From assembly GCF_041260155.1 (NCBI RefSeq), contig NC_091947.1, forward strand, positions 31,706,780-31,770,779: a stretch of DNA of 64,000 nt. The letters are read 5' to 3'. Position 1 is the stretch's first letter; each line of letters opens with the position of its first letter. The notes below the pieces were generated by a model. That model had not been told where the DNA came from. It ran no database searches and saw only the letters and a list, made by a program, of their open reading frames with translations. A program made the position numbers and the translations under genes. The stretch comes from Ptychodera flava (Eukaryota). Positions 3,702-63,600 of this stretch are shown here, one piece after another.

Positions 3702-4252
3702 GTATGTCACTTTGAACTTTTTCTCCCTTCTGTAGAAAGATTTTCATAAACCATTGATACTTTTATGTCGTCGTCTGCTGTCTGCTTAGCTGTCTATCAG
3801 AATAAATTCATGGACCTTTCCCCCTTATTTGTAATGCATACTTAGCTGCTGTTACTAGAACAAAAAAGACTGATTTCTTAGTTATCGGAGAGACTGTATA
3901 GCATAAGGAATATAATGACTGCTATTTTAGAAACCACAACCCTTAATTGTTGGTTGTGGTGTTTTTGCCAGGCTTAGAAAACAAGGAAATGGTGCTTGAA
4001 TTGTTTTGAAATTATGCCTTCCCTAATGTGGCTGCATCGATACACCAGGAAACCGTGGCAAAATGTACCAGCATTCTTCTGTAGTAAAAAAAATCTACTG
4101 TCTCTTGCCTTCATGCTTTGAATATTTATCTGGCACATAGTACAACTGCTCAGATATTTATTTTCACTGCATGATTCCTGTGGAGAAGTATCAGAAAAGC
4201 TTTCTAAAAGCCGTAAAAAGCCTTAACAAATTCATATTGCCAAATGCAACAG

Positions 4253-4480
4253 GTTCAAGCGACAGTCCAAGAAGTGTTTGGCAAAGTGCCAGGAAAATCA
4301 GTCAATCCAGATGAAGCAGTTGCCATGGGCGCAGCAATCCAAGGTGGTGTCCTCGCTGGTGATGTCACAGATGTTTTGTTGTTAGATGTAACGCCGTTAT
4401 CATTGGGTATTGAAACTCTTGGTGGTGTGTTCACCAAACTTATCAACAGAAACACAACAATTCCAACAAAGAAGAGTCAG
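4253..4480 (+). CDS. HSPA9: HSPA9-like exon: [76 protein letters not shown] (76 aa)
   Basis: Acceptor aacag ends at 4252, donor gtaaga at 4481. Highly conserved HSP70 linker and substrate-binding-domain sequence. Confidence 0.9.
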
Positions 4481-5096
4481 GTAAGATTGTCAGAAATTCA
4501 TATGTGTCATTGTCCCATTTTGTTGCAACACTGATCATGCAGCCTTGATTTGGCAGTTTCAACACTACTCATCTCCTCAGATGTCAACCATGTATTGCAC
4601 ACATCAATGTTTTTGCTTATTTTTGAAAATGGCAGTGAATGTTTGACATCCTGCTCTTCCCAACACAAATATTTTGATATACCAAGGGGAACTCTGTTAC
4701 ATTTTCTACCAAACCACTGATAACAACTGCTAGTTAACGTCTTCCAGTTGATGTGTTAACTTTCAATTAACTTTGCTGTCAACAAAAGATGTGTCCAACC
4801 TACATCCCTAAGAGTCTGTGCAAGATCAGAGAAATTGTAATGCTTAAACCAAATGATCAGGAAAATTGATGGAACAGATAGTGGTATCAGACAAAGCCTT
4901 GACCCTTTCAGCACCATGGATTCATCCAAACCCATTGTTATGAATGGTGATTGTGGACCTGAATACAGGGAAATGGGGGTGAACAGGTTAAAGATAGTGT
5001 TCTGTTTGGCTTTTGACAGCCACTTTGAAGTATTGCACACAAAGAAGATGAAAACATTTCTACCAGTGCAGACAATGATACGAAGCAAAATTCTGA

Positions 5097-5279
<183 letters not shown>

Positions 5280-5500
5280 TGACATAGAAAAGTGTCACCT
5301 AAATAGTTTCTATTTGGCAGTGTTCAAAAACATATCCTCATGCAAAATATCTTTTCCTTACAAATGTTAGAATCAAGAGAAAACTGAAAAAAGGAGATAA
5401 AGAAATTATTAAGTGTACACTTTAGTTTATGTTGACCACATTTGCCATAATCACTGCTACTCTCATAGTATTTTTTGTATTGTTTGAATTGCTCACACAG

Positions 5501-5618
5501 GTAGGAATTCCTCCAGCACCGCGTGGTGTTCCACAAATTGAAGTTACTTTTGACATAGATGCCAATGGTATTGTCAATGTCTCGGCCAGAGACAAAGGTA
5601 CTGGCAAAGAACAACAAA
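5501..5618 (+). CDS. HSPA9: HSPA9-like exon: [39 protein letters not shown](+1 nt)
   Basis: Acceptor cacacag ends at 5500, donor gtaagt at 5619. The exon ends in phase 1, and the codon is completed as Ile by the next exon. Confidence 0.88.
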
Positions 5619-5811
5619 GTAAGTCTATGCTTGACAATAACATATATCAGAGTCATTTTACAGCTTAGTGGAAAAATTAACAGATGAACCGCACTAGTGG
5701 ATGCAGTAAGACTTTCCTCTCGCAAGGCGACAATATTTAAACTCAGAGTCTTTGAATACACAAAGGGGACAAACATGAGTGACTTTGCCAGCAAATTGAG
5801 ATGTTATTCCT

Positions 5812-5955
5812 TTGATAGCTGTACTTTGACATTGTATACACAGTATTTATAAGATATTTACAAGTAATGATTATCGGAATAATTGTAGGACTTTGACATT
5901 GTATACACAGTATGTATAAGATATTTACAAGTAATGATTATCGGAATAACTGTAG
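5812..5955. repeat. Tandem duplication of a ~67-bp unit (actttgacattgtatacacagtat.tataagatatttacaagtaatgattatcggaataa.tgtagg) inside an HSPA9 intron
   Basis: Two near-identical adjacent copies read directly. Confidence 0.8.
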
Positions 5956-6129
5956 GTCTTCGGAATGAACTACGGCCAGTTATTCCAAATGTGCTAAAAA
6001 TATTGTTTGCCTGTTTTAGTAAATAACTTAAGATTTGCAGAAATTTCTTTTTATTGCATTGTAATCGGACATGCGCTGCTGAAATGGTTCATTTTGGATT
6101 GTAAACAACTTTTGTTTATCTCTCTGCAG

Positions 6130-6224
6130 TTGTTATTCAGTCATCTGGAGGTCTCAGTAAAGATGAAATTGAGAACATGATCAAGAGAGCTGAACAGTAC
6201 GCTGAAGAAGATAGAAAGAAGAAG
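6130..6224 (+). CDS. HSPA9: HSPA9-like exon: (I)[31 protein letters not shown]
   Basis: Acceptor ctctgcag ends at 6129, donor gttggt at 6225; frame restored. Confidence 0.85.
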
Positions 6225-6526
6225 GTTGGTTTAACTTCATCTGTGTGATAGCTTGCAAACTGTCTGCAGTAATGTTTATGTATGACAACATGAACCGTGA
6301 TTGCAATTGTACCAAGCAAATACACATTAATTTTATGCTTTTCATGTCAGCAGGTAATCTATGCATGCTAAGATAGGCTCTGGAAAGGATGACTTAAAGC
6401 AATGTCATAGTAGACAGCATCCTTCAAGAAAGTGTCAATAATGAGCTGTTGAGTTTCAGGAAAAGGACACTAAATCTTTGCAAGATTTCACCTGTTTGAA
6501 TGATTTCAAAATATGTTTTCTTACAG

Positions 6527-6619
6527 GAAAGTGTTGAAGCTATCAACAAAGCAGAGAATATTATCCACGACACAGAATCCAAAATGGAGGAATACAAAGA
6601 CCAATTGCCAGAGGAAGAG
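6527..6619 (+). CDS. HSPA9: HSPA9-like exon: [31 protein letters not shown]
   Basis: Acceptor ttacag ends at 6526, donor gttagt at 6620. Confidence 0.85.
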
Positions 6620-7123
6620 GTTAGTAAGAGTTGTTTTGCTGAAATTATTTTGAGTAACACTGTTGTGTCATCTTCATTGTTCAAAAGAGAAGGCTGCAGA
6701 ATGGCAAGTGTAGGTTTGAGTAGGAGCTATTCTTATCTGTACCACGTTTTGGTATGTGATGTAATTTACTCATAAAAACAATAGTATTTCCAGTAAAGGT
6801 TGTATCAAGACATTGCTAACCTATAGTTACTGGTCGTCTGCATAGCTTGGTAAAATGGCAACAGCCTCCTTTCAGTGTTGCTTCAGTATCCACACAGACA
6901 TGGCTCATTAGAATCTACATTGTCAAAGTATAGCATCATCATCTATTTACTTACCCAGGGAAATCAGAATATTATTTTTATATTGGAAAAACGTACCGAT
7001 ATTGTTCAACTTTCTAATCTTAGCTTGACCAATGATGGTGGGGACTTCATAGTGTATGTTCCCGTAGCAGGATTCTGTCTTGTATGATAAAGTGTAACCA
7101 CTGTAATTTATATTTGCATACAG

Positions 7124-12829: not shown

Positions 12830-13440
12830 ATACACTGCATACCAAGATATGTCCACATCATGTTATATTGTTATTACAGTATCAAAATTTCTCTACAAAA
12901 CACCTTCTACACAACAGATTTCATGTCATTTGGAAAGTCTGTAAATTACTGATACATGAAATAAACATCCATACAGCGGTAGCTATGTTTCTTACTGCAC
13001 CAGTATATCACCTTGACTACTACAATGTAAGAGAATGGCTGCACTGACGACATTGTGAATATATATACAGGATCTCATTGGAATTTTCTGGCACCAAAGG
13101 TGTCCTGTACTTCATTTAATGGCACCTGTAATTTCTGGCATTCAAGGTAGTCAAGGGGTTGACGTAGAAAGCTGTATTGATGATGAATATGGTTACATCA
13201 AAATTTCTCTGAGTGAAACATTTTAAACACAAAAGATTTGCATGTCATTTAGAAAGTCTTTCAACAACGACTGTATAAATTACATACCAACGCAGAGCTA
13301 AGTAACGCTATATACTGCAGAAGTTTAAGACATCCAGCTATGTCCATGATAAGACAATGCCCTTATAAAATTTCCCTACAAAACATATTGTACACAAATA
13401 TTTACCTATCTGGTCATCTTGAAAGTCTTTCAATGGTAGC
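12830..13440. repeat. About three degenerate tandem units (~200-260 bp) sharing motifs 'aaaatttc[tc]ctacaaaaca' and 'tcatttggaaagtct'
   Basis: Recurring motifs at ~12880/12930, ~13200/13250 and ~13365/13425; units are diverged. Confidence 0.35.
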
Positions 13441-32269: not shown

Positions 32270-33850
32270 TAAACATAGCCATAACTGTAAGACCAGATAT
32301 GAACTGTAAATGCTCATGTGTTTCATTATATATTGCAGTTATGTGTAAATTTGAACATTTGCCACATGTTTGCAACTTCATTGAAAGTATTATGATCAAC
32401 TTAATGAACAATAGTCACCACAGATTAACTCAATAGGTCATTAAGTATTCTAATATGTAATTAGCTGAAATAGAAATAATTAATTTCTTTGACTGCTATC
32501 ATTTTATCGCCATTTTATATAGCAAGTGTAATTGCCTTTGGTCAAGTCCTTCAAACTATATATTCCAAACTTTGAGAGCTCATTAGATATGCAAACTATA
32601 AATTAGCTGACATGAAAACTTAAGTGCGAAATGACTTCCAATATTGGTATAACCTGGTATAATCATCAATGTACATAGCATGTTATGCCAACTTTGATCA
32701 AATAAATCCAAGTATGTATCCCTAATTAGGAAAGTTAATTAAATACACACATTAGGAATTGGCTGAAGCAAAAATGCTTAATGCCTTTCAATAATGTTAG
32801 CCTACATAATAGTATCTTTAATGTGCATAGCAAGTTTCATCAATTTTGGTCATGTAAATTGAAATATATATCCCTAATTTCAAAAATTCATTTAATATGC
32901 AAATTAGGAGCTGGATAAAGTAAAAATGCTCAATGACTTTCAATAATGTCGTATCGTAGCATCTTTAATGTACATAGCAAGTTTTGTCAACTTTGGTTTA
33001 GTCAATACAGATAAATATCCCTGATTATGAAAGTTCATTAAATATGCAAATAAGGAATTGGCTAAAGTTTAAATGCTTAGTGACTTTCAATGATGTTCTA
33101 TCATAGTATCTTTAATGTACATAGCCAGTTTCATCAACTTTGGTCTCGTCAATTCAGATAAATATCCCTAATTAGGAAAGTTCATAAAATATGCAAATTA
33201 GGAATTGGCTGATGTAAAAATGCTGAATGACATTTAATAATGTTCTATCATAGTATCTTTAATGTACATAGCAAGTTTCATCAATTTTGGTCATATAACT
33301 TCAAATATATATCCCTAATTTCAAAAATTCATTAAATATGCAAATTAGGATTTTGATGAAGTAAAAATGCTAAATGACTTTCAATAAGGTTAAATCATAG
33401 TATCTTCAATATGCATACCAAGTTTCGTCAATTTGGTTCAAGTAAATTCAGATATATACTCCTAATTAGGAAATTTCATTAAACATGCAAATTAGTAATT
33501 ATCTTGCATGTCACCCCTTAATATCTTTCAAAGCTGATATATTTTGGTGTGATCAACATTTGTAGCGAATCTCATCAAATTGTGTGCAGTCGTTGGCAAT
33601 ATATATCAGTTTTTTCTAAAATCATTAATTATGCAAATGAGCAAAAAGTAAGCAAGCCACACCCACCAAGTTCTTGCCATTTGCAAACTGAATCTATGTA
33701 CCGGATTTGATGCTGATCTGATGAGCCGTTTTTGAGATATTGAGTATACAGACAGACACACAGACAGACAGACACACAGACAGACAGACATCGCTGCGAC
33801 GTATGCTCACGTGTGTCAACACGTGAGCAAAAAATGAAGGGTGATCAATT
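32270..33850 (+). mobile_element. ~1.55 kb satellite-carrying non-autonomous element (family X): 5' ccagatatgaactgtaaatgctcatgtgtttc…, ~8 tandem ~148-bp units (…tagcaagtttcatcaa.tttggtc…tccctaatt.ggaaa.ttcattaaatatgcaaattaggaattgg…), a (CAGA)n/(ACAG)n microsatellite, and a 3' hairpin gctcacgtgtgtcaacacgtgagc followed by aaaaaa
   Basis: Near-identical copies at 54430-55950 (+) and 47950-49580 (-); the structure was read directly. Confidence 0.85.
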
Positions 33851-47949: not shown

Positions 47950-49580
47950 CAATCTCATAATGTCATTTTATCTGCTCACGTGTTGACACACGTGAGCATA
48001 TGTCGCAGCGATGTCTGTCTGTCTGTGTGTCTGTCTGTCCGTCTGTCTGTCTGTGTGTCTGTCTGTCTGTGTGCTCAATATCTCAAAAACGGCTCATCAG
48101 ATCAGAATTAAATCTGATATATAGATTCAGTTTGCAAATGGCAAGAACTGATTAGTTTTTGGTGGGTGTGGCTTGCTTACTTTTTGCTCATTTGCATAAT
48201 TAATTATTTTAGAAAAAACTGATATATATTGACAACGATTGCACACAATTTGATGAGATTTGCTACAAATGTTGATCACACCAAGATATATCAGCTGTGA
48301 AAGATATTAAGGGGTGACATACATGTAAAAGATAATGAATAATTTGCATATTTAATGATCTTTCATAATTAGGGATATATATCTGATTTGACTTGATCAA
48401 AATTGACAAAACTTGGTATGTATATTGAAGATACTATGATTTAACATTATAGAAAGTCATTAAGCATTCCTACTTCATCAAACTCTTAATTTGCATATTT
48501 AATGAACTTTTGGAATTAGGGATATTTATTTGAATTGACTTGACCAAAATTGATGAAAGTTGCTATGTACATTAAAGATACTATGATATAACATTGTTGA
48601 AATTCATTAAGCATTTTTACTTCAGCCAAATACTTATTTGCATATTTAATAAACTTTTCTAATTAGATACATAAATCTGAATGGACTTGACCAAAATTGA
48701 TGAAACTTGCAATATACATTAAAGATACTATGATATAACATTGTTGAAAGTCATTAAGCAGTTTTACTTCAGCCAAATACTTATTTGCATATTTAATAAA
48801 CTTTCCTAATTAGATACATAAATCTGAATGGACTTTACCAAAGTTGATGAAACTTGCTATGTACATTGAAGATACTATGATATAACATTATTGAAAATCA
48901 TTAAGCAGTTTTACTTCAGCCAATTCCTTATTTACATTTTTAATGAACTTCACTAATTAGGGATATATATCTGAATTGATTCGACCGAAGTGGATGAATC
49001 TTGCAACATATATTGAAGATACTATAAAACAACATTATTAAAAGTCATCGTTTACTTCAGCCAATTCCTAATTTGCATATATAATGAACTTTCCTAATTA
49101 GGGATATTTATCTGTATTGACTAGACCAAATTTAACAAAACTTGCTATGTACGTTAAAGATACTATGATACAGCATTAAAAGTCATTAAGCATTTTTACT
49201 TTAGCCGATTCCGTATTTGCAAATTTAATGAATTTTCCTAATTAAGGATATTTATCTGTCTTGACTAGACCAAAGTTGATGAACTGCTTTGTACATTAAA
49301 GATACTATGATACGACATTATTGAAAGTCATTTAACATTTTTACTTCAGCCAATTCATAATTTGCATATTTAATGAGAACATTTCAGTCAATTCCTAATT
49401 TGCATATTTTAATGAACTTTCCTGATTGGGGATATATACTGGGATTTAAAATTAATCTGTGGTGAATATTATTCATTATGTTGATCATAACACTTTCAAT
49501 GAAGTTGCAAACATGTGGCAAAGGTTCAAATTTACACATAACTGCAACATATAATTAAACACGTGAGCATTTTCAGTTCA
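47950..49580 (-). mobile_element. Family-X satellite-carrying element in inverted orientation (hairpin gctcacgtgttgacacacgtgagc and (CTGT)n at 47960-48070; ~148-bp units 48300-49400; 5' end ~49556-49580)
   Basis: Reverse complement of 32270-33850 and 54430-55950. Confidence 0.85.
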
Positions 49581-51844
49581 TATCTGGTCTGCAAAGTTGT
49601 TTGAAATCACTTGCCAACAGGGTTCTAAGATATTTCCCTTTTCATAGTGCATTCTGTGATCAATTTCCTTTTCATAGTGCATTCTTTGATCAAAGTGTGG
49701 CATCTTCATCATCTTGTACATCGCTATCAATATCACTGCTACTATCACTGTTAATTTTATGGTATTCATACCCAATAAATAATCTACAAATGATTTTGGA
49801 AAAGGATCCAAAGTAAAGCACTAAGCTCTATTGGTGAAGAAATTTTGTTGTCAGAAATATACGTGCTGAAGCAAACAATCTGTTCGGAGTGAAAAGTAGA
49901 TCTTTTGTTTGTCAAAGCAACTCTACTGATTTTGTTCCTGTCTGGTCACTTAAAAAAATGGTGTGACAATATTCACAAAGTCTCTTGAACAATTCAGTAT
50001 ATAATCCATATACAAGCAGTTTATAGACAAGTATTGGACAGGGAGTGTATTGGCAAGAGCATAAAGGATATATCAAAAGAAAAAAAATTTAAACATTTTT
50101 TGGAGGAAATACGAACTATTCTTCCTTCAAATATTGTTTTGATTTTTTTTTTCTGTTGATTTATCCTTCCTTTTTGCTCTTGCCAATACACTCTTGTCCA
50201 ATATTTGACTATAAACTGCTTGTATTTATGGATTATGTGTAGTGATCTTGAAAGCTTCAACATGAAGTGATTGAAATGGCGGAAATAAGTAGAAAGACTA
50301 TCATTACAGTGTCTCTCATTGAATGTAGGTATTGACATAGACAAAGATGCTATGGATATATGTGACAAGTTGGACCAAGTTACATGAGGGATGGGTGATT
50401 TAATATCTAGGGGTCTTGCAAAATGTTTGAATAAAAAGAACCCAAATGACAGAAAATTTTTGTCAGCAGGCCAAAGTCAATCAGAAGTAATTTCCCTTTT
50501 GGCACACTCTTTCAGCACTTTTTGTCAATTTTTTCAGCAATTTCATTTCAAGTACCTCTCTGGCCCTAAATATCAAAGAGTATGAATACCATGTTACCTT
50601 TATTTATAATTAAGAGGCAACATTTGAAAAACTTTTGAAACGTTTGCACTGGTCCTCAGCAAATAATTCTCACTAAAGCTGGTTGAAATGCCTGTTAATT
50701 TGGTCAGTAAATACAGCCGTTTTGGCCAAGCAGTTTTGTATGTGGCTTCTAAATGGGTGTTGTACGTTGCGAGTTCGAACCCAATTGAAAACACGGTAGT
50801 TATATCATGTGAGCACCACATGCTTAATTCTTTGGTCTTTTACATCATGACTTGTCTACAAAAGTTCTCTACATGGACTGATTGCATTGTTAGAAAAATT
50901 ATTTAGACGACTGCAGCCAAAGAATTTCGTTGTCATGTTGTATGTCGTACAGTGTCAACAAAAATATTTGAAAATCATTCCAAGTTCAACAGTCACTCTC
51001 CTTGAAAGCATTGAACAAGAGACATAATTAATTGAACTCCATGAACTTTATTAACTTTAAATCACACAATAAACTTAATCTATATAACTCTTCAAACATG
51101 CTAGTATACAGATACACAAAAACAAATCAAGGGTCAACAATGCTTGTAATTGTCACTTACTGTCCACGCATTTGAACCTTTCTTGCTGGCACTCAAAGCC
51201 ATGTGTGTATCACCTTTGCTTTGTTATCTGTATATTTTTGCTTTGGCAGTTGGATTGATATTTGATGCTGATTCTGCTGTTGTAGCCACCTGCTTTGGTT
51301 TTCTTTTATTGCTCCTGGAACACTCGCTTAAATTTCAAAACACACCACTGAAGTTTCAAAGTTCTCTTGTGAAGATCGAGTTACCAACCTGCTAAATGTC
51401 CTGTAGGGGATAGATTATTCTGTCGTAAGTTGAACACGAGAGTATAGTAGCTTTGGTGTTTTCAGGTATGGGTCTGAATAAGTTCTGCTCGCTGGAGGGG
51501 TGTCTATGCGTCACCAGCACTCCAGCAGGGGTTGTAGAGGGCACAAATCTGTTTACAGTACACTCTTCCCCGTCTTGTTGAGCAGGCCAAAGCTGTACCC
51601 GCAAACTGGAAGAGATTGAAGTGAGCAAACAAAACACAAAACAAAAAAAAACAAGAGACAAAAGTACACAGAACCTTCTTCTAGGTCTTCCGAGTGGGAC
51701 TATTCCCAGTGGGGCTCCCTTCTCTGAATGGGATGTTCTGTACTGGCTGTGTGGATCTTTGTGGCACAATACCACATGGGGCTTTACCTTGGGTATATGC
51801 CCCCTTATGGTACGAATCACTCCCAGATCTTCAAGCCTTCCTTC

Positions 51845-52736
51845 TCAACACCGGTATAGATGGCGGGTGTTGGCCATCGCCGTCTGCAGTAGCTGCTGGA
51901 CATCGCCACTGCGGTGTTTTACCACCACCAGTGCTACATCACCAATATATGCAGGGGTGTTAAATCGCTGACCTGGTCTGGGCATCAGGTAGGGCGAGTC
52001 TGTTTCAAGGAGGATCCGGTCATTGGGGATTTGGCTCAAAGCATTTGCCTGCACACAGTCAAAGCTGGCCACCATTGCTGAAAAACTAAAATAGCAATTG
52101 GGGAATGCCTGGCTCCACCGTCTGAAGGTATATATGTTCCCCATGAAGTTGTGAAGATGTATCCGTTGCAAGGGGTCACATGCTTCCCTCATGGACAGTA
52201 GAGCTAAAGCGTATGTGTCGGAGGCATACTTATCTTCCTCAGTGCCACAAATATGGAGTATAATGGGCTTGTTGGGATTTGCTAGCTTAAGGAGTTCACG
52301 GAAGGCCTGCTCCTGCCAAAGCCATCTATCGCTGCTCACCGTTCTATCAAGACCGATTTCCCCTAGGGCTGCCACATGTGGGGATGCAACAAAACTCCGG
52401 ATTTTCCGGAACACCTGCATGCCCGCGTCAGCAGCCACCTTGGGGTGGAGACCAACAGCCACTTTCCACCCTGGTTCCCGAACCAGGTCTTGGGGGTAGC
52501 ATTCTGGGTCGCTGTAGACTTCGACACCTCCGACCACTTGGACAGGAACCAGTGGTCGAACACCAGGGTTTGCGGAGATCAGCTGCGACGAGGTTGTGAA
52601 CCCGCTACCCCTTCGGAATTGGTTAATAGCCTGATCTAGGTGAAAGTGAGCATCCATGGCTTGAGGTAGTAACGGTCCCCTGGTGATGACGGCTTCTTGT
52701 CTTCTGCTCACCTGGAGGGATGCGAGTCTCTCCAGA

Positions 52737-52768
<32 letters not shown>

Positions 52769-53674
52769 GTGGGGAGGTTCCTCGATGGCTTTGCCCTTCC
52801 ACTTTCTGACTCTCTCCCTATCAAGGGGGGTCAAGTCAGACAGCAAAACTGCAATGACCCTCCAGTGGACCAGCACTGCGGGAGTGCTTGGTGGGCTCAG
52901 CCGAAGCTTCCTGGGTACCTCCCAGTCCATTCTGCGGCACAGGCCCTCGATTGTCCGCTGGCAGCCTTCAGTGATTTTGGCACTGAGTGGGACTCTCGCA
53001 GACCCATGGGCCAAGAAGTATTCGAACAAGGCCACTATGGGCATACTCGGGCCGACCAACTTGCCAGTGAGGAATTCCAGGAGGTCAATTATGGAATCAT
53101 AATCAACACACCTGGGGTCCTCTCGGAGGCATCGGGGGAGATGTTTCCGAAAGCAGTGCTCCTTGACTCCCTTTGATTCATGGAGGCATCCGGGGAGGGG
53201 GCATGGAGTGGGTTTGCGTGGGAAGAATGTTCCAGCTCCCTTCTCTCTCTCTTTCCATGGGCTGGTCTCCTCCTCCTTGCATTGCTTTTCATTCCTGTTC
53301 TTGCCTTCCCTCTCCTGGTTTTCCTCGCTGATTCTCCTAGCAAGCCGTTGGCGCCGTTGTCTCCGTTTGGAAGCCTTGGTCAGTTTTGGCTTGACCACTA
53401 TTCCCACTGGCTCCAAGCTTTCCATGGTCTTCCCCTGGTCCCCAATGGGCTGGCCTGTTGCACCCGACAATGTGGAGATGGCCTGTTCCCTTTGGGTTGC
53501 CTGGGGTCGACGGCTGGTCTTGCTTGGGGTGGGCGGTGGGGGCATGAGCCATTTGTCAAAGTGGGGATCTGTTCTGGACACTGCAGCTACTGGGGGCTTG
53601 ATGACATAATCCTCAGATGAGGTGTCCTCCGAATCAGATGTGAATTGGAACAGGTGAGTGCTTGATGTTGCCAT
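51845..53674 (-). CDS. Intronless ORF encoding an N-terminal extension plus a TatD-family metal-dependent nuclease domain (~609 aa from Met 53674; the uninterrupted ORF extends upstream to Met 53851, 668 aa). The N-terminus is Ser/Glu-rich with a basic KRRQRRQRLARR stretch, CPLPGCLHESKGVKEHCFRKHLPRC and poly-Ala. The C-terminal half carries the TatD motifs DAHFHLD, ALGEIGLD, ILHICGTEED, HNFMG and LLETDSPYL
   Basis: The single ~2 kb ORF is from the supplied six-frame track. I recognise the TatD signature residues (His pair in DxHxHLD, Glu in GEIGLD, His in HxF, Asp in ETD). The + strand ORFs overlapping it are antisense artefacts. Confidence 0.7.
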
Positions 53675-53879
53675 TCTCGTCGACAACACACTGAAAAGAA
53701 ACAGAAAAGAAACAAATTTAAAAATCATACAAATCAATGCAGCTTGGGCAGAGGAAATCACCCCAATGTGTTTTTCTAGAGGTGTCATTCCCCAGTATTG
53801 TGAAGACCAAGTTACCATTACGTGCTCCTGTAGGGGGTAGTCACTTCTCACGAGTAGGTTGACATCCCTTCAGTAGTTC

Positions 53880-54420
53880 TTGAGATACCGGGTTTACAGA
53901 CAGACACACACACACACACACACACACAGACATCGGTAAACCATATGCTCATTTGTGTGTGAACACGTGAGCAAAAAATTGAAGATTTCATCAAATTTCA
54001 ATATATCACACTAGGACAACCCCTAGGAACCTGTATACCAAATATCAAAGGCATCAGACAAGTAATTTTTGAGAAACACATTTTTTGACCAAAAATGGCA
54101 CAAATTGCACAAAAAATACAAAATTGCAGATTTCATCATATATTCAATACCTCATATTAAGTTCATCTGTAGGAACCTGTATACCAAATATCAAAGCTGT
54201 CAGACAAGCGTTTTTTTTTTAAATAAAAATTTGACCAAAAATGACCAAAAAATTCCTTAAAAATACAGATTTGCATATTTTATCACAATTTGAACAAATC
54301 CAAGTTGGGTTATCCCTAGGGACCTGTATATCAAATATCAAAGCTGTCTGACCAGCGGTTATGAAGAAGATTTTTTACCAAAAATGCCTTTTTTGGCGCT
54401 AATTTGCATATTTTCAACAA
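53880..54420 (+). repeat. Microsatellite (CAGA/CA)n plus hairpin gctcatttgtgtgtgaacacgtgagc plus A-run (a family-X-like 3' end), followed by ~3 tandem ~115-bp units (…cctgtataccaaatatcaaagctgtcagacaagcg…ttgaccaaaaatg…caaaaaatacaaa.ttgca.atttcatca…)
   Basis: Direct reading. The same 115-bp unit recurs at 56190-56470 (+) and in reverse orientation at 62270-62560 and 63340-63600. Confidence 0.75.
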
Positions 54421-54429
54421 TATCAAAAA

Positions 54430-55950
54430 ATTTAAAACCAGATATGAACTGTAAATGCTCACGTGTTTCATTATATATTGCAGTTATGTGTAAATTTGAA
54501 CCTTTGCCACATGTTTGCAACTTCATTGAAAGTATTACGATCAACATAATGGACATAATTCACCACAGATTAACTCTATAGGTCATTAAGTATTCAAATA
54601 TGTAATTAGCTGAAAAAAATATTAATTTCTTTGACTACTGTCATTGTATCACCACTTTATATAGCAAGTGTAATTGCCTTTGGTCAAGTCCTTCAAACTA
54701 TATATTCCAAACTTTGAAAGCTCATTAGATATGCAAACTATAAATTAGCTGACATGAAAACTTAAATGCGAAATGTCTTCCAATATTGATATAACTGGTA
54801 TAATCATCAATGTACATAGAATGTTATGCCAATTTTGATCAAATAAATCCATGGCAAGTATATATCCCTAATTAGGAAAGTTCATTAAATACAAAAATTA
54901 GAAATTGGCTGAAGCAAAAATGCTTAATGCCTTTCAATAAAGTTAGCCTACATAATAGTATCTTTAATGTACATAGCAAATTTCATCAATTTGGTCATGT
55001 AAATTCAAATATATATCCCTAATTTCAAAAAATCATTAAATATGCAAATTAGGAGCTGGATGAAGTAAAAATACTTAATGACTTTCAATAATGTCGTTAA
55101 TGTACATAGCAAGTTTCGTCAACTTTGGTCTAGTCAATACAGATAAATATCCCTGATTATGAAAGTTCATTAAATATGCAAATAAGGAATTGGCTAAACT
55201 TCAAATGCTTAATGACTTTCAATAATGTTCTATTATAGTATCTTTAATGTACATAGCCAGTTTCATCAACTTTGGTCTCGTCAATTCAGATAAATACCCC
55301 TAATTAGGAAAGTTCATAAAATATGCAAATTAGGAATTGGCTGATGAAAAAATGCTTAATGACATTTAATCATATTCTATCATAGTATCTTTAATGTACA
55401 AAGCAAGTTTCATCAATTTTGGTCATGTAACTTCAAATATATAGCCTTAATTTCAAAAGGTCATTAAATATGTAAATTAGGATTTGGATGAAGTAAAATG
55501 CTTAATGACTTTCAATAACGTTAAATCATAGTATCTTCAATATGCATACCAAGTTTTGTCAATTTTGATCAAGTAAATCCAGATATATACTCCTAATTAG
55601 GAAATTTCATTAAACATACAAATTAGTAATTATCTTTCAGGTCACCCCTTAATATCTTTCAAAGCTGATATATCTTGGTGTGATCAACATTTGTAGCGAA
55701 TCTCATCAAATTGTGTGTAGTCGTTGTCAATATATATCAGTTTTTTCTAAAATCATTAATTATGCAAATGAGCAAAAAGTAAGCAAGCCACACCCACCAA
55801 AAACTAATCAGTTCTTGCCATTTGCAAACTGAATCTATGTACCAGATTTGATTCTGATCTGATGAGCCGTTTTTGAGATATTGAGTACACAGACAGACAG
55901 ACAGACAGACATCGCTGCGACATATGCCCACGTGTGTCAACACGTGAGCA
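54430..55950 (+). mobile_element. Third copy of the family-X satellite-carrying element (ends …(cagacaga)n catcgctgcgacatatgcccacgtgtgtcaacacgtgagcaaaaaa)
   Basis: Near-identical to 32270-33850 over its whole length. Confidence 0.85.
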
Positions 55951-57189
55951 AAAAACTGTTTCTCATAATCATATTTTACTTCTACACAACAAATATCAAA
56001 TCAGTAAGTACTGTGGTTCTCAAGATATTTGAGTGGACGGATGCCTCACACACGTACATACATACACACATACTGTGTATACAGACTGACGCCGGACGGA
56101 TACCCATCCCAATATCTTCTATAGACTATAGTCTATAGTAGCTAAAAATCGCTAGTTTATACTTATAACTTCAATACATTATATCGAGATAAATCTTAGA
56201 TAACTGTACACCAAATATCAAAGCTATCAGATCAGTAGTTTTTGGATAAAAAAATTTTTGACCAAAAATTGGGAAAATTGCCCCAAAATTACAAATATGA
56301 CAATATCAATACAATTTGTACAAACTTGACTGAGGTCATCCTGAGGAACATGAATATTAACTTTAAGAGCGATCAGACGAGCGATTTCAGAGAACAAGAT
56401 TTTTTGACTAAAAACAGAAAAAAATACCCTAAAAATACAAACATGCAAATTTCACCTCAACTTGTGCACACATAATTGAGAATACCTAAAGGAATCCGCA
56501 TGCTAAGTTTCAACCCAATCTGACCAATGCTTACTGAGTTTAGCCATTTGCAGGATTTTTCCTTTTTTCCTCTCATTTGCATATTTTTGGCACTGATATG
56601 TTCATTTGAACAAATTCATATCTCCACCCCTGGGTGCATCTGTACACCAAATACTAAGACAGCAGCCATAGCGGTTTAGGAGTTTTTGATCTGTACAGAC
56701 TAACATACACACAGACCCCATTTTGCCACCTTATAAGAATACCTCCCATCTGCATATATACATATGCACATATAGGAGCTAAAAAAAATCAATCAATCAA
56801 TCAATCTTTTATTACTCAAACAAACAAACACAGAGTGTGGTATGGCACATTTCAGATGAAAGAACTACATGTTCAACACTGAACACCATCAAATTGATAA
56901 AATCAGTTCAATATTGCTGGTAAATTTTGTAGCTTCACTAATCACGACTATGGTCAAAGTTTATCAGTTGATCTACTGTACTATGGTGATCAGAGACCAT
57001 GGGCCTATTCAGTGGTCCTGGAGCCGAAACGACATGAAAATGACAAAATCATGCAAATCACCCATAAAAGTTATGGAATAAGCGTTTGTATAGTTAACCA
57101 AACTGGATATATTTTTCACAGATTTTTTTTAGAGTTAAAGTGTTATATGGACCACGGTCCTTAAAATAAGCTCATTGGTTTGTGGCATT

Positions 57190-62269: not shown

Positions 62270-63600
62270 ACTTACTGATTTGATATTTGTTGTGTAGATG
62301 AAAAATATGATTTTGAGAAACTATTTTTTTTAATTTTTTGATATTGTTGAAAATAGGCAAATTAATGCCAAAAAAGGTGTTTTTGGTAAAAAATCTTCTT
62401 CTTCATAACCGCTGGTCAGACAGCTTTGTTATTTGGTATACAGGTCCCTAGGGATAACCCAACTTAGATTTGTTCAAATTGTGATGAAATATGCAAATGT
62501 GTATTTTTAAGGAATTTTTTTGTCATTTTTGGTCAAAGTTTGACTTACATTGTATGTAATTCTTGTACTGTATAAACCCTATCAATTCACCCAGAAAAAA
62601 ATAATTAATATGATTTTAAATAATTGAATTAATTAGGAAATCATCAAAGCCAAATAATTTTAGTGTGGAATTATCAGAAAGTTCAACTTTTTTGGACAGT
62701 TCATAGTGAATTGAGGATTTAAACATGTAAAGGCAACTTTCCTGAATCCCAACTTTGATATATTCTGAACCACCATTTATGTTATCTAAAAGAAATTGCT
62801 CATAATAGTTTGTCATGATAGGGTGGTCAAATAAATAGAGATAGAGAAAGTTCTAATTTCCATTTATGGTTGACTTGGTAAGGATAAAATAAGATTACCT
62901 TTTGAGGAAAAAAATAGAGTGGTCAATTAAAAGAGTGGTCAAAGTGATAGGGTTTTTATGGTAAAGCTGGGCTGTAAGATTTCTCATGTGCTATTTATAG
63001 CAATTATGCAATCTGTGTAAACAGTGCATTAAAAGTGTAACATGATTCCTTATAATGCTTTGATGACCTTGAACTTCTTAAGTTTCAAACATTTGTCTCT
63101 TCAGTGTGCTTTCTCTGAGTACGTACAGTCTCAACTATTCAACAGAACTTACTTACAATGTTAATTTGAAAGTTAAAATGTGCTTGGTTTAGGATGAAAA
63201 TACTGATATTAAAAGATAATCAGCTCAAGATTCTTTATAACCTCACAGATATGCTGTTTTTTTATGACGTAAATCTTGATTGAAGCAAGTCTTGTTTACT
63301 TTAATTAGAATGTAATTAACTCTCATTTATTTGCTATTATAGACTAATATAGTCTGATGAAATATGCAAATCTGTATTTTTACAGAATTTTTTTTCCATT
63401 TTTGGTCAGGCCATCCTGAAATTAGCTATCAAAGATATCCACCTTCTTCATCAATACATGTGTCACAAAAGGTTATTCTCTACATAACTCAGCAGAGCTC
63501 TGTCAACTGTTGAGTCGCTTGTCTTTTCAAAACCACTGGTCAGACAGCTTTAATATTTGGTATACAGGTCCCTAGGATGACCTTAGTGAGATAATTTCAT
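62270..63600 (-). repeat. Reverse-orientation copies of the ~115-bp 'ggtatacaggtccctagg…tttggtcaaa…atgcaaat' unit (62270-62560 and 63340-63600) separated by unique AT-rich sequence
   Basis: Reverse complement of the units at 54040-54400 and 56190-56470. Confidence 0.7.

Follow-up and report, generated by a model that had tools for sequence, protein, structure and literature searches.

We analyzed a window of 64,000 nucleotides from Ptychodera flava and found that a single-exon open reading frame (ORF) on its minus strand, at 51845..53674, encodes a 5΄-truncated homologue of the third protein (ORF3) of complete Ty3/gypsy-type LTR retrotransposons. We consider it likely that the locus is a stand-alone, truncated ORF3 copy derived from a marine-invertebrate lineage of such elements, and we read the gene as a retrotransposon ORF3 that was orphaned or perhaps exapted. 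More tentatively, the elements may constitute an undescribed and widespread metazoan Ty3/gypsy clade, with a PHD-bearing integrase and a third protein that joins a new zinc-finger/helical fold to a TatD nuclease and would be the first TatD protein of a retroelement, and the P. flava gene may be an exapted orphan kept by selection after its LTRs decayed.

The ORF comprises 609 aa and a stop when counted from the first ATG at position 53674, and the ORF listing extends it to 668 aa (51845..53851, minus strand) when counted from a GTG. From end to end, the 609-aa product matches XP_070541281.1 (‘uncharacterized protein [Ptychodera flava]’) with 100% identity, which means that the annotated CDS consists of one exon. 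The uninterrupted frame that an earlier note on this DNA had reported with both starts was confirmed. The G+C content is 0.50–0.54 over the ORF versus 0.29–0.35 in the flanks, and the gene thus forms a G+C-rich island amid repeats. A polypyrimidine tract followed by AG (tcttttctgtttcttttcag, 53691..53711, minus strand) ends 16 nt before the ATG and is splice-acceptor-like by sequence. An AATAAA lies ~535 nt past the stop codon (51305..51310, minus strand) and is followed by A-rich, non-homopolymeric sequence.

The C-terminal part of the protein (aa 335–608; 51851..52672, minus strand) is a TatD TIM-barrel nuclease domain, as recognized by Pfam (TatD_DNase PF01026; E 1.3e-33, 116.9 bits against a cut-off of 27), by sequence matches in the PDB (YcfH 1yix, 6.6e-13; TatD 4pe8/1xwy, ~4e-10) and by structure prediction. 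The predicted model reached a pLDDT of ~87–98 in nearly every block over aa 335–609, and a Foldseek search with it returned 1xwy, 1yix, 2y1h and 2xio at E values of 1e-11 to 1e-13, with TM-scores of up to 0.79 on the target. The motifs DAHFHLD (aa 341–347), GEIGLD (438–443), LHICG (473–477), HLHNF (506–510) and ETDSPY (557–562) supply all of the metal ligands: H343/H345, E439, H474, H506/H508 and D559. Four of these (H343, H345, E439 and D559) are nearly invariant across a 28-sequence alignment of the family. As judged from sequence and model, the active site of the protein is intact, and the complete domain and conserved metal-binding residues that the earlier note had read from the letters were borne out.

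The region ahead of the barrel is ~337 aa long, not ~380 aa as the note had estimated, and its features were located as follows. A basic stretch (KRRQRRQRLARR, aa 103–114; 53333..53368, minus strand) falls within a predicted helix (aa 100–124) surrounded by low-confidence sequence; it is NLS-like and may serve as a nuclear localization signal. The Cys/His cluster is part of a conserved 150-aa module (aa 150–298; 52781..53227, minus strand), in which a beta-beta-alpha zinc motif, C158-x4-C163-x9-H173-x4-H178 (CPLPGCLHESKGVKEHCFRKH, aa 158–178; 53141–53203, minus strand), is followed by a helical bundle closed by a motif of the type NSPAxLxHWRxL (LVHWRVI, 52853–52873, minus strand). A run of nine alanines (aa 305–313), encoded by (GCT)9 (52736..52762, minus strand), lies in the low-confidence linker that joins the helical module to the TatD domain, and this linker carries tandem-repeat expansions in relatives. 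The zinc-finger/helical module, a confidently predicted fold, had no match in Pfam, the PDB or viral structures and is without a solved relative. The architecture, which had been called non-standard, is conserved and has no counterpart among Pfam families or solved folds.

An exhaustive phmmer search with the window protein yielded 5389 matches, among which were 201 cluster representatives with E < 1e-30. Many of these relatives align from aa ~150 to 608 of the query, and share the zinc-finger/helical and TatD architecture. In the 28-sequence alignment, the two cysteines and two histidines of the finger, the HWR motif and the TatD motifs are conserved. The named members belong to molluscs and hemichordates, and the proposed clade would have molluscs, hemichordates and probably other marine invertebrates as hosts. 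The family was visible only by exhaustive search: word-indexed protein searches recovered little besides P. flava paralogues and bacterial TatD proteins. A generic ETDxPY pattern applied to metagenome and viral collections recovered only bacterial and phage TatD at 25–35% identity.

We examined ten genomic contexts of relatives outside the window, and in five of these the family member immediately follows a PHD-bearing integrase, as part of a Ty3/gypsy-type element. One of the five (locus L094) has 100% identical LTRs (1439–1670 and 12876–13107), a 4-bp target site duplication (ATTT) and a polypurine tract (GAAAAGGGGGAGGAG), and encodes an intact gag, a 1855-aa pol (PR, RT, RH, IN and PHD) and then a 920-aa ORF3 (P0171), to which the window protein is 32% identical over aa 158–608 (E 4e-71). 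Just inside the called ORF3 of this element, an in-frame ATG is preceded by ttccttctattttcag, which resembles the tract tcttttctgtttcttttcag of the window. L095 encodes gag, pol (IN-PHD) and then a 1076-aa ORF3, and its contig carries repeat arrays at either end. In L003, LTRs of 93% identity, a PBS-like site and a polypurine tract accompany a decayed gag-PR-RT-IN-PHD-ORF3; in L092, a 910-aa ORF3 begins 33 nt after the end of the IN-PHD ORF; and in L001, the IN-PHD region is split by a nested LTR element and followed by ORF3. Complete elements are thus arranged in the order LTR, gag, pol (protease, RT, RNase H, integrase and PHD finger), ORF3, polypurine tract and LTR. Within ORF3, an N-terminal helical domain is followed by a basic, disordered, repeat-prone stretch, the C2H2-like zinc motif with the helical bundle, a linker and the TatD domain. 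The window ORF is a family member without the N-terminal domain found in relatives. The kind of mobile element involved could not have been known to the author of the earlier note.

The five remaining members (L002, L007, L093 and L004–L006) stand alone with no recognizable LTR pair, and because such members make up half of the contexts, transfer may run from element to host or from host to element. An ordinary, lineage-specific, intronless host family of zinc-finger/TatD proteins, captured at least once by related gypsy elements, would also account for these contexts, in which neither LTRs nor pol were found within 10 kb, and the window gene would then be a host paralogue amid repeats. We regard this as unlikely, although the paralogues of P. 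flava group as a single clade in a neighbor-joining (NJ) tree, the window ORF is annotated as a protein by RefSeq, and the Ostrea edulis member is annotated and was found on the same transcript-like contig of ~6 kb from three sequencing runs. Against a host family, the PHD-integrase linkage recurs at distant positions, since L094, L095, L003, L092 and L001 occupy three separate branches of the rough NJ tree, which is star-like and weakly resolved. The integrases of the LTR-borne loci are 43–77% identical to one another, and an old linkage therefore fits better than repeated capture. Moreover, every family locus examined is one uninterrupted ORF, despite the fact that genes of the phyla hosting the family are usually intron-rich.

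The copy pattern also argues against a host family. At least nine loci or protein models of the family are present among the annotated proteins of P. flava. Four of these (XP_070567369, XP_070552512, XP_070573762 and XP_070556387) form one cluster of >90% identity spread over three large, chromosome-scale contigs (44, 48 and 63 Mb), and the further paralogues include apparently broken models (P0002 and P0003). Near-identical copies are likewise found on different contigs in Argopecten irradians (five copies) and Pecten maximus (three copies). On sequence grounds, this dispersed, multi-copy state resembles that of a mobile sequence. The window gene belongs to this multi-copy, uniformly single-ORF family, and the view of the earlier note that it is not a canonical TATDN housekeeping gene was upheld.

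The window gene does not lie within an intact element. Using tblastx and tblastn with gag, PR, RT and IN of L003, L092 and L001, we detected no gag, pol or integrase remnants anywhere in the 64-kb window, and only the TatD region was matched. Thus, the suggestion that the nuclease is borne by a mobile element holds for gypsy-type relatives elsewhere, and not for an intact element at this locus.

We then compared the sequences on the two sides of the ORF, where degenerate direct repeats of ~70 bp had been proposed. The segments 51367–51433 and 53798–53862 gave a gapped alignment of ~66–71 nt at 70–74% identity, with a local score of 23, compared with 11.2 ± 1.5 for 500 dinucleotide shuffles (highest, 21). 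When each flank was compared with the whole window on both strands by sensitive BLASTN, the other flank was the sole match with E < 0.01 (3e-4 to 8e-4). The direct repeat is real, yet short and weak. Both copies end in ...TTCACA, which is compatible with LTR ends, and the copies are putative LTR remnants. The upstream copy (53798..53876, minus strand; ending ...GGTCTTCACA) may represent the 3΄ terminus of a 5΄ LTR that a neighboring repeat cuts off at ~53876. The downstream copy (51367..51450, minus strand; ending ...GATCTTCACA), where the G+C-rich island stops, is possibly the 3΄ end of a 3΄ LTR of ~300 nt that would start with TGTGTAC at 51670; a purine-rich, polypurine-tract-like run (51674–51690) precedes this candidate start, 3 nt away from its TG. 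The remainder of the 5΄ LTR was not found elsewhere in the window by BLASTN, and because the 5΄ side of the unit is cut off, a target duplication is unreadable there.

The repeat that cuts the unit is the truncated end of a hairpin and microsatellite repeat (53876..53984, minus strand) that abuts the gene unit from outside, and is 78–80% identical to 33728–33839, 47963–48090 and 55887–55958. On a larger scale, the gene lies between inverted satellite-carrying elements, each with 147-bp arrays inside, whose arms are 96% (48048–48318/55641–55911) and 89% (49432–49588/54437–54593) identical. The presence of these inverted copies agrees with the earlier note; their role as the defining unit of the locus does not seem to stand. 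If the 1.6-kb repeats at 47963–49590 and 54437–55958, complementary at 89–96% and enclosing a 4.85-kb segment with the gene, were the termini of a foldback or composite element, the gene would be its cargo. However, a third, equally similar member of this young repeat family occurs on its own at ~32290–33839, so the elements look like independent insertions. In addition, unrelated sequence (49590–51300) and another repeat (53876–54437) part the gene unit from the arms, and no such arms surround its relatives in other genomes. We consider this origin very improbable and rejected it.

The single exon, the downstream AATAAA and the A-rich tail region are also what might be expected of a retrogene processed from a multi-exon housekeeping gene (TATDN1/2/3), an origin that the earlier note had likewise entertained. 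However, a poly(A) tract and a short target duplication are absent at the locus, and the 150 nearest relatives in the phmmer search all belong to the same intronless family. The zinc-finger/helical module and the overall architecture are common to retrotransposon ORF3s, and not to TATDN proteins. Solved human TATDN1 and TATDN3 gave no sequence match at E 0.001 or better, whereas bacterial YcfH and TatD did. The retrogene origin is scarcely credible, and it was rejected.

A derivation from retrotransposon ORF3 suggests the following course of events. The P. flava copy would have retained the sequence starting at the end of the N-terminal domain, including all catalytic residues, and would have lost gag, pol and the first ~200 codons. 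The ~70-nt flanking repeats would most simply be the terminal (...CA) ends of two LTRs, the 5΄ one having been cut by a later repeat. As to the biochemical role of the window protein, which we infer throughout, it would be a nuclear, Zn/Mg-dependent nuclease of the TatD type, acting as a 3΄–5΄ exonuclease or in an RNase-H-like manner on ssDNA, RNA or RNA:DNA hybrids, and the zinc-finger/helical module may steer it to nucleic acid or element particles. Within the element, the ORF3 protein may be translated from a subgenomic RNA produced by splicing, and could aid replication, either through the processing of cDNA or hybrid intermediates or as a countermeasure to nucleic-acid-based defences of the host. 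The orphan copy might still provide this activity in trans, or might have been co-opted by the host.

The usual description of an LTR retrotransposon comprises gag and pol, sometimes joined by env, and to our knowledge, enzymatic third ORFs are confined to a few cases, such as the DEDDy and GDSL ORF3s of rotifers. In the bdelloid rotifer elements Juno and Vesta, ORF3 encodes a DEDDy 3΄–5΄ exonuclease or a GDSL esterase, with no transmembrane domains reported, and TelKA2n is a non-autonomous derivative that keeps ORF3 without most of pol (Rodriguez, Kenefick and Arkhipova 2017, PMC5408684). Like the TatD elements, Juno and Vesta have pol followed by a third ORF that encodes an enzyme rather than an envelope protein, with intact catalytic residues. 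However, their nuclease is DnaQ-like DEDDy rather than a TatD TIM barrel, their host phyla differ, and, unlike these elements, the window copy is devoid of gag and pol. The zinc-finger/helical module, the PHD-bearing integrase and TatD (zero occurrences) are absent from the rotifer description (PMC5408684). The env-type third ORFs of errantiviruses and gypsy-like elements likewise lie between integrase and the 3΄ LTR, with a splice-acceptor-like tract at the ORF start, whereas the TatD ORF3 is no glycoprotein, and is a soluble nuclease by predicted structure.

Among TatD proteins, bacterial TatD/YcfH (PDB 1yix, 1xwy, 4pe8 and 6l25) have the same fold and motif set, and gave the best sequence and structure matches. 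However, they are single-domain proteins of ~260 aa, at 20–27% identity to the window protein, without the zinc-finger/helical module, the disordered N-terminus or a retroelement link. Vertebrate TATDN2, by description, resembles the window protein in layout, with a long, disordered N-terminal region preceding a TatD domain at the C-terminus. It is a multi-exon host gene reported to resolve R-loops, and we know of no zinc-finger/helical module in it. This likeness suggests by analogy that RNA:DNA hybrids are a plausible substrate class.

In a literature search, we found neither a paper tying TatD to LTR retrotransposons nor an earlier account of such a retrotransposon gene; Troyka elements, which were also considered, proved unrelated. 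A TatD ORF3 that is kept across phyla, and in an element whose LTRs are identical, would bring a new accessory activity to retroelement biology, and would suggest a testable TatD-type role on reverse-transcription intermediates or RNA:DNA hybrids. In RefSeq, dozens of mollusc and hemichordate models that carry the names ‘uncharacterized protein’, ‘TatD-like’ or ‘YcfH-like’ probably represent retrotransposon genes or orphans of this kind, as do some ‘MAG’ proteins assigned to bivalve symbionts.

The minus-strand, uninterrupted ORF at 51845–53674 encodes a 609-aa product identical to XP_070541281.1, an 'uncharacterized protein' of the acorn worm Ptychodera flava from a 39.1-Mb contig, and its G+C content is 0.50–0.54 against 0.29–0.35 in the surrounding A+T-rich, repeat-laden DNA. 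The earlier note had read a TatD-type nuclease domain from a set of motifs; every one of these was found in the protein, and Pfam TatD_DNase confirmed the domain (116.9 bits, E = 1.3e-33). The best sequence matches among solved structures were bacterial YcfH and TatD, and the C-terminal 275 residues, modelled by AlphaFold with a pLDDT of ~87–98 in nearly every block, superposed on TatD-family structures (E about 1e-13). The metal ligands (HxH, Glu, His, His and Asp) were all intact. A basic NLS-like stretch, KRRQRRQRLARR, is located in the N-terminal region.

An exhaustive HMMER search with this protein, covering 1.84 billion representatives, returned 5389 matches, of which 201 fell below 1e-30. 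Many of these span the query from about residue 150 onward to its C-terminus; its N-terminal half is no ad hoc addition. In both a 28-member alignment and an alignment of the excised region, an invariant C-x4-C-x9-H-x4-H motif was followed by a helical region terminating in an NSPAxLxHWRxL-like motif. An extra N-terminal helical domain is present in longer relatives, the P. flava paralogue P0003 among them; the window protein keeps at most the final few residues of this domain and so is 5΄-truncated compared with the full form. In-frame tandem repeats with units of 45, 75, 84 and 93 nt make up the disordered stretches of relatives encoded at loci outside the window (L002, 10330–11529; L003, 9725–9949; L095, 6996–7499; L007, 13370–13834), as exemplified by the 15-aa SSHEIPASSRGITYR-like units of the relative P0007, and this part of the proteins is apparently prone to rapid expansion and contraction. 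In the window protein, the equivalent linker contains the Ala9 run.

Family members with a named source belonged to the hemichordates P. flava, with at least nine protein models, and Glandiceps talaboti, and to the molluscs Haliotis cracherodii, Ostrea edulis, Pecten maximus and Argopecten irradians. Proteins of eukaryote-type architecture were also deposited under two bivalve-symbiont 'MAGs', namely 'Sedimenticola sp. MAG' (P0019, MES9882213.1, 754 aa) and 'Candidatus Thiodiazotropha sp. MAG' (P0051/P0168), which are probably mollusc host contigs mis-binned into symbiont assemblies. Clusters formed at 90% identity or more comprised copies from different contigs, several of chromosome size: five copies in A. 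irradians, three in P. maximus and four in P. flava. The P. flava models P0002 and P0003 look like fragments of broken copies.

In 5 of 10 contexts outside the window, the family gene was ORF3, the third gene behind gag and pol, of a gypsy-type LTR retrotransposon. The element at L094 is complete: its two LTRs, each of 232 nt, are 100% identical, it shows a 4-bp target duplication (ATTT), and a polypurine tract adjoins the 3΄ LTR. Its coding part comprises a PNMA_C-like gag, a pol of 1855 aa (with protease, RT, RNase H and integrase domains and a PHD finger) and an ORF3 of 920 aa that overlaps the pol end. L095 contains gag, pol (with integrase–PHD) and a 1076-aa ORF3; L003 is a decayed copy with LTRs 93% identical, a PBS-like site and a PPT; at L092 a 910-aa ORF3 begins 33 nt past the end of the integrase–PHD region; and at L001 a nested LTR element interrupts integrase–PHD, with ORF3 next. 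The window protein and the L094 ORF3 were 32% identical over the zinc-finger/helical module and TatD alike (E = 4e-71). The integrases of the five LTR-borne loci were 43–77% identical to one another, and in a rough NJ tree their ORF3s occupied three separate branches. The remaining five contexts (L002, L007, L093 and the O. edulis contigs L004–L006) were stand-alone ORFs, with no pol or LTR pair within reach. Capture of a host gene family by retroelements is a reading that we consider rather improbable; it would accord with half the contexts being stand-alone and with an ORF3 tree that is not rootable with confidence.

A PHD finger (Pfam PF00628) forms the C-terminal end of the integrase in this lineage (L094, 4440–10007; L095, 2153–6106; L092, 7812–9968; L003, 7601–8065), in the place where chromoviruses carry a chromodomain, and it may steer integration to particular chromatin. 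L092 is either rearranged or composed of two copies head to head, because gag and protease (4068–7059) are inverted upstream of integrase–PHD–ORF3 and a 30-aa piece from the start of the integrase–PHD ORF recurs in inverse orientation just past ORF3 (12846–12935).

The earlier note had also offered a mobile-element-borne origin, which the LTR-borne contexts support, although no similarity to gag, protease, RT or integrase was found anywhere within the 64-kb window. The flanking direct repeats it had described were recovered as an alignment of about 66–71 nt with 70–74% identity, whose score lay ~8 SD over the shuffle mean, with the best of 500 shuffles within two points; by BLASTN over the whole window (E below 0.01), each flank's sole match was the other. 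Both copies end in ...TCTTCACA; a truncated hairpin and microsatellite repeat stops at 53876, exactly where the upstream copy starts; the end of the downstream copy coincides with that of the G+C-rich island; and TGTG, after a purine-rich run, starts at 51670, about 300 nt upstream of the downstream copy. To judge from these sequence features, the flanks could be LTR remnants, and the locus would then be an internally deleted element in which a remnant of the 5΄ LTR and a short leader precede the 3΄ two-thirds of ORF3 and a 3΄ LTR of roughly 300 nt. If the flanks are cognate LTRs, they have diverged by about 0.16–0.19 substitutions per site per lineage, and under simulated neutral decay the ORF stayed open in 0.15% of trials at 0.10 and in 0 of 2000 at 0.15. 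Given that neutral simulations rarely keep the ORF open, cognate LTRs would point to purifying selection and therefore to exaptation. The locus is probably an orphaned, and possibly an exapted, ORF3 copy. The retrogene option of the note, in the sense of a processed TATDN copy, is unlikely, since the ORF has neither a poly(A) tract nor a short target duplication, it shares its architecture with the ORF3 family, and no sequence match at E 0.001 or better was obtained to the TATDN1 and TATDN3 structures.

Upstream of the ORF, a candidate 71-nt 5΄-UTR intron extends from GT at 53761–53760 to AG at 53692–53691 on the minus strand; downstream of the ORF, the AATAAA at 51305–51310 is a candidate poly(A) signal. 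Its polypyrimidine-AG tract stops 16 nt short of the ATG, and a comparable tract at L094 precedes an in-frame ATG slightly inside the called ORF3, a pattern that suggests env-like spliced expression. E. coli TatD is established as a nuclease acting on ssDNA, RNA or RNA:DNA hybrids, and TATDN2 has been reported to be of the same kind. By analogy, ORF3 and the window protein would be nuclear, metal-dependent TatD nucleases with such substrates; we infer that the zinc-finger/helical module might bind nucleic acid or element proteins and that, within the element, the enzyme might serve to process intermediates of replication or to counter host defence.

The nearest precedent in the literature is that of bdelloid rotifer LTR retrotransposons, in which the ORF3 product is a DEDDy exonuclease or a GDSL esterase, and for which a non-autonomous derivative retaining ORF3 was also reported; TatD is not mentioned in that paper (PMC5408684). 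Full-text literature on TatD and/or ORF3 with retroelements yielded nothing relevant, in a coverage outside which most subscription journals and Repbase reports fall, so that absence is not proof. An enzymatic ORF3 is in itself already known; the present one, also from an LTR retrotransposon, is of the TatD type and has a new, putative targeting module.

A young repeat family of ~1.6 kb, with copies 89–97% alike, occurs at 47963–49590, 54437–55958 and about 32290–33839. The first two are inverted copies, between which the note had placed the locus, and the ORF might be cargo of a foldback made by them; this is unlikely, as the third copy is solo and the sequence between the arms and the ORF is unrelated. 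At one end of the element, the perfect palindrome GCTCACGTGT-TGAC-ACACGTGAGC precedes a (GTCT)n microsatellite, and the interior holds 5–7 copies of a 147-bp tandem repeat, a layout that we take to resemble the non-autonomous Helitron/Helentron-like elements with tandem repeats known from bivalves. A second, distinct tandem repeat family (146–147 bp) occupies 53975–54437, 56167–56454, 62327–62547 and 63346–63593; it adjoins the hairpin end of the ~1.6-kb family at two places, and its segments 54220–54437 and 62327–62547 are 92% identical.
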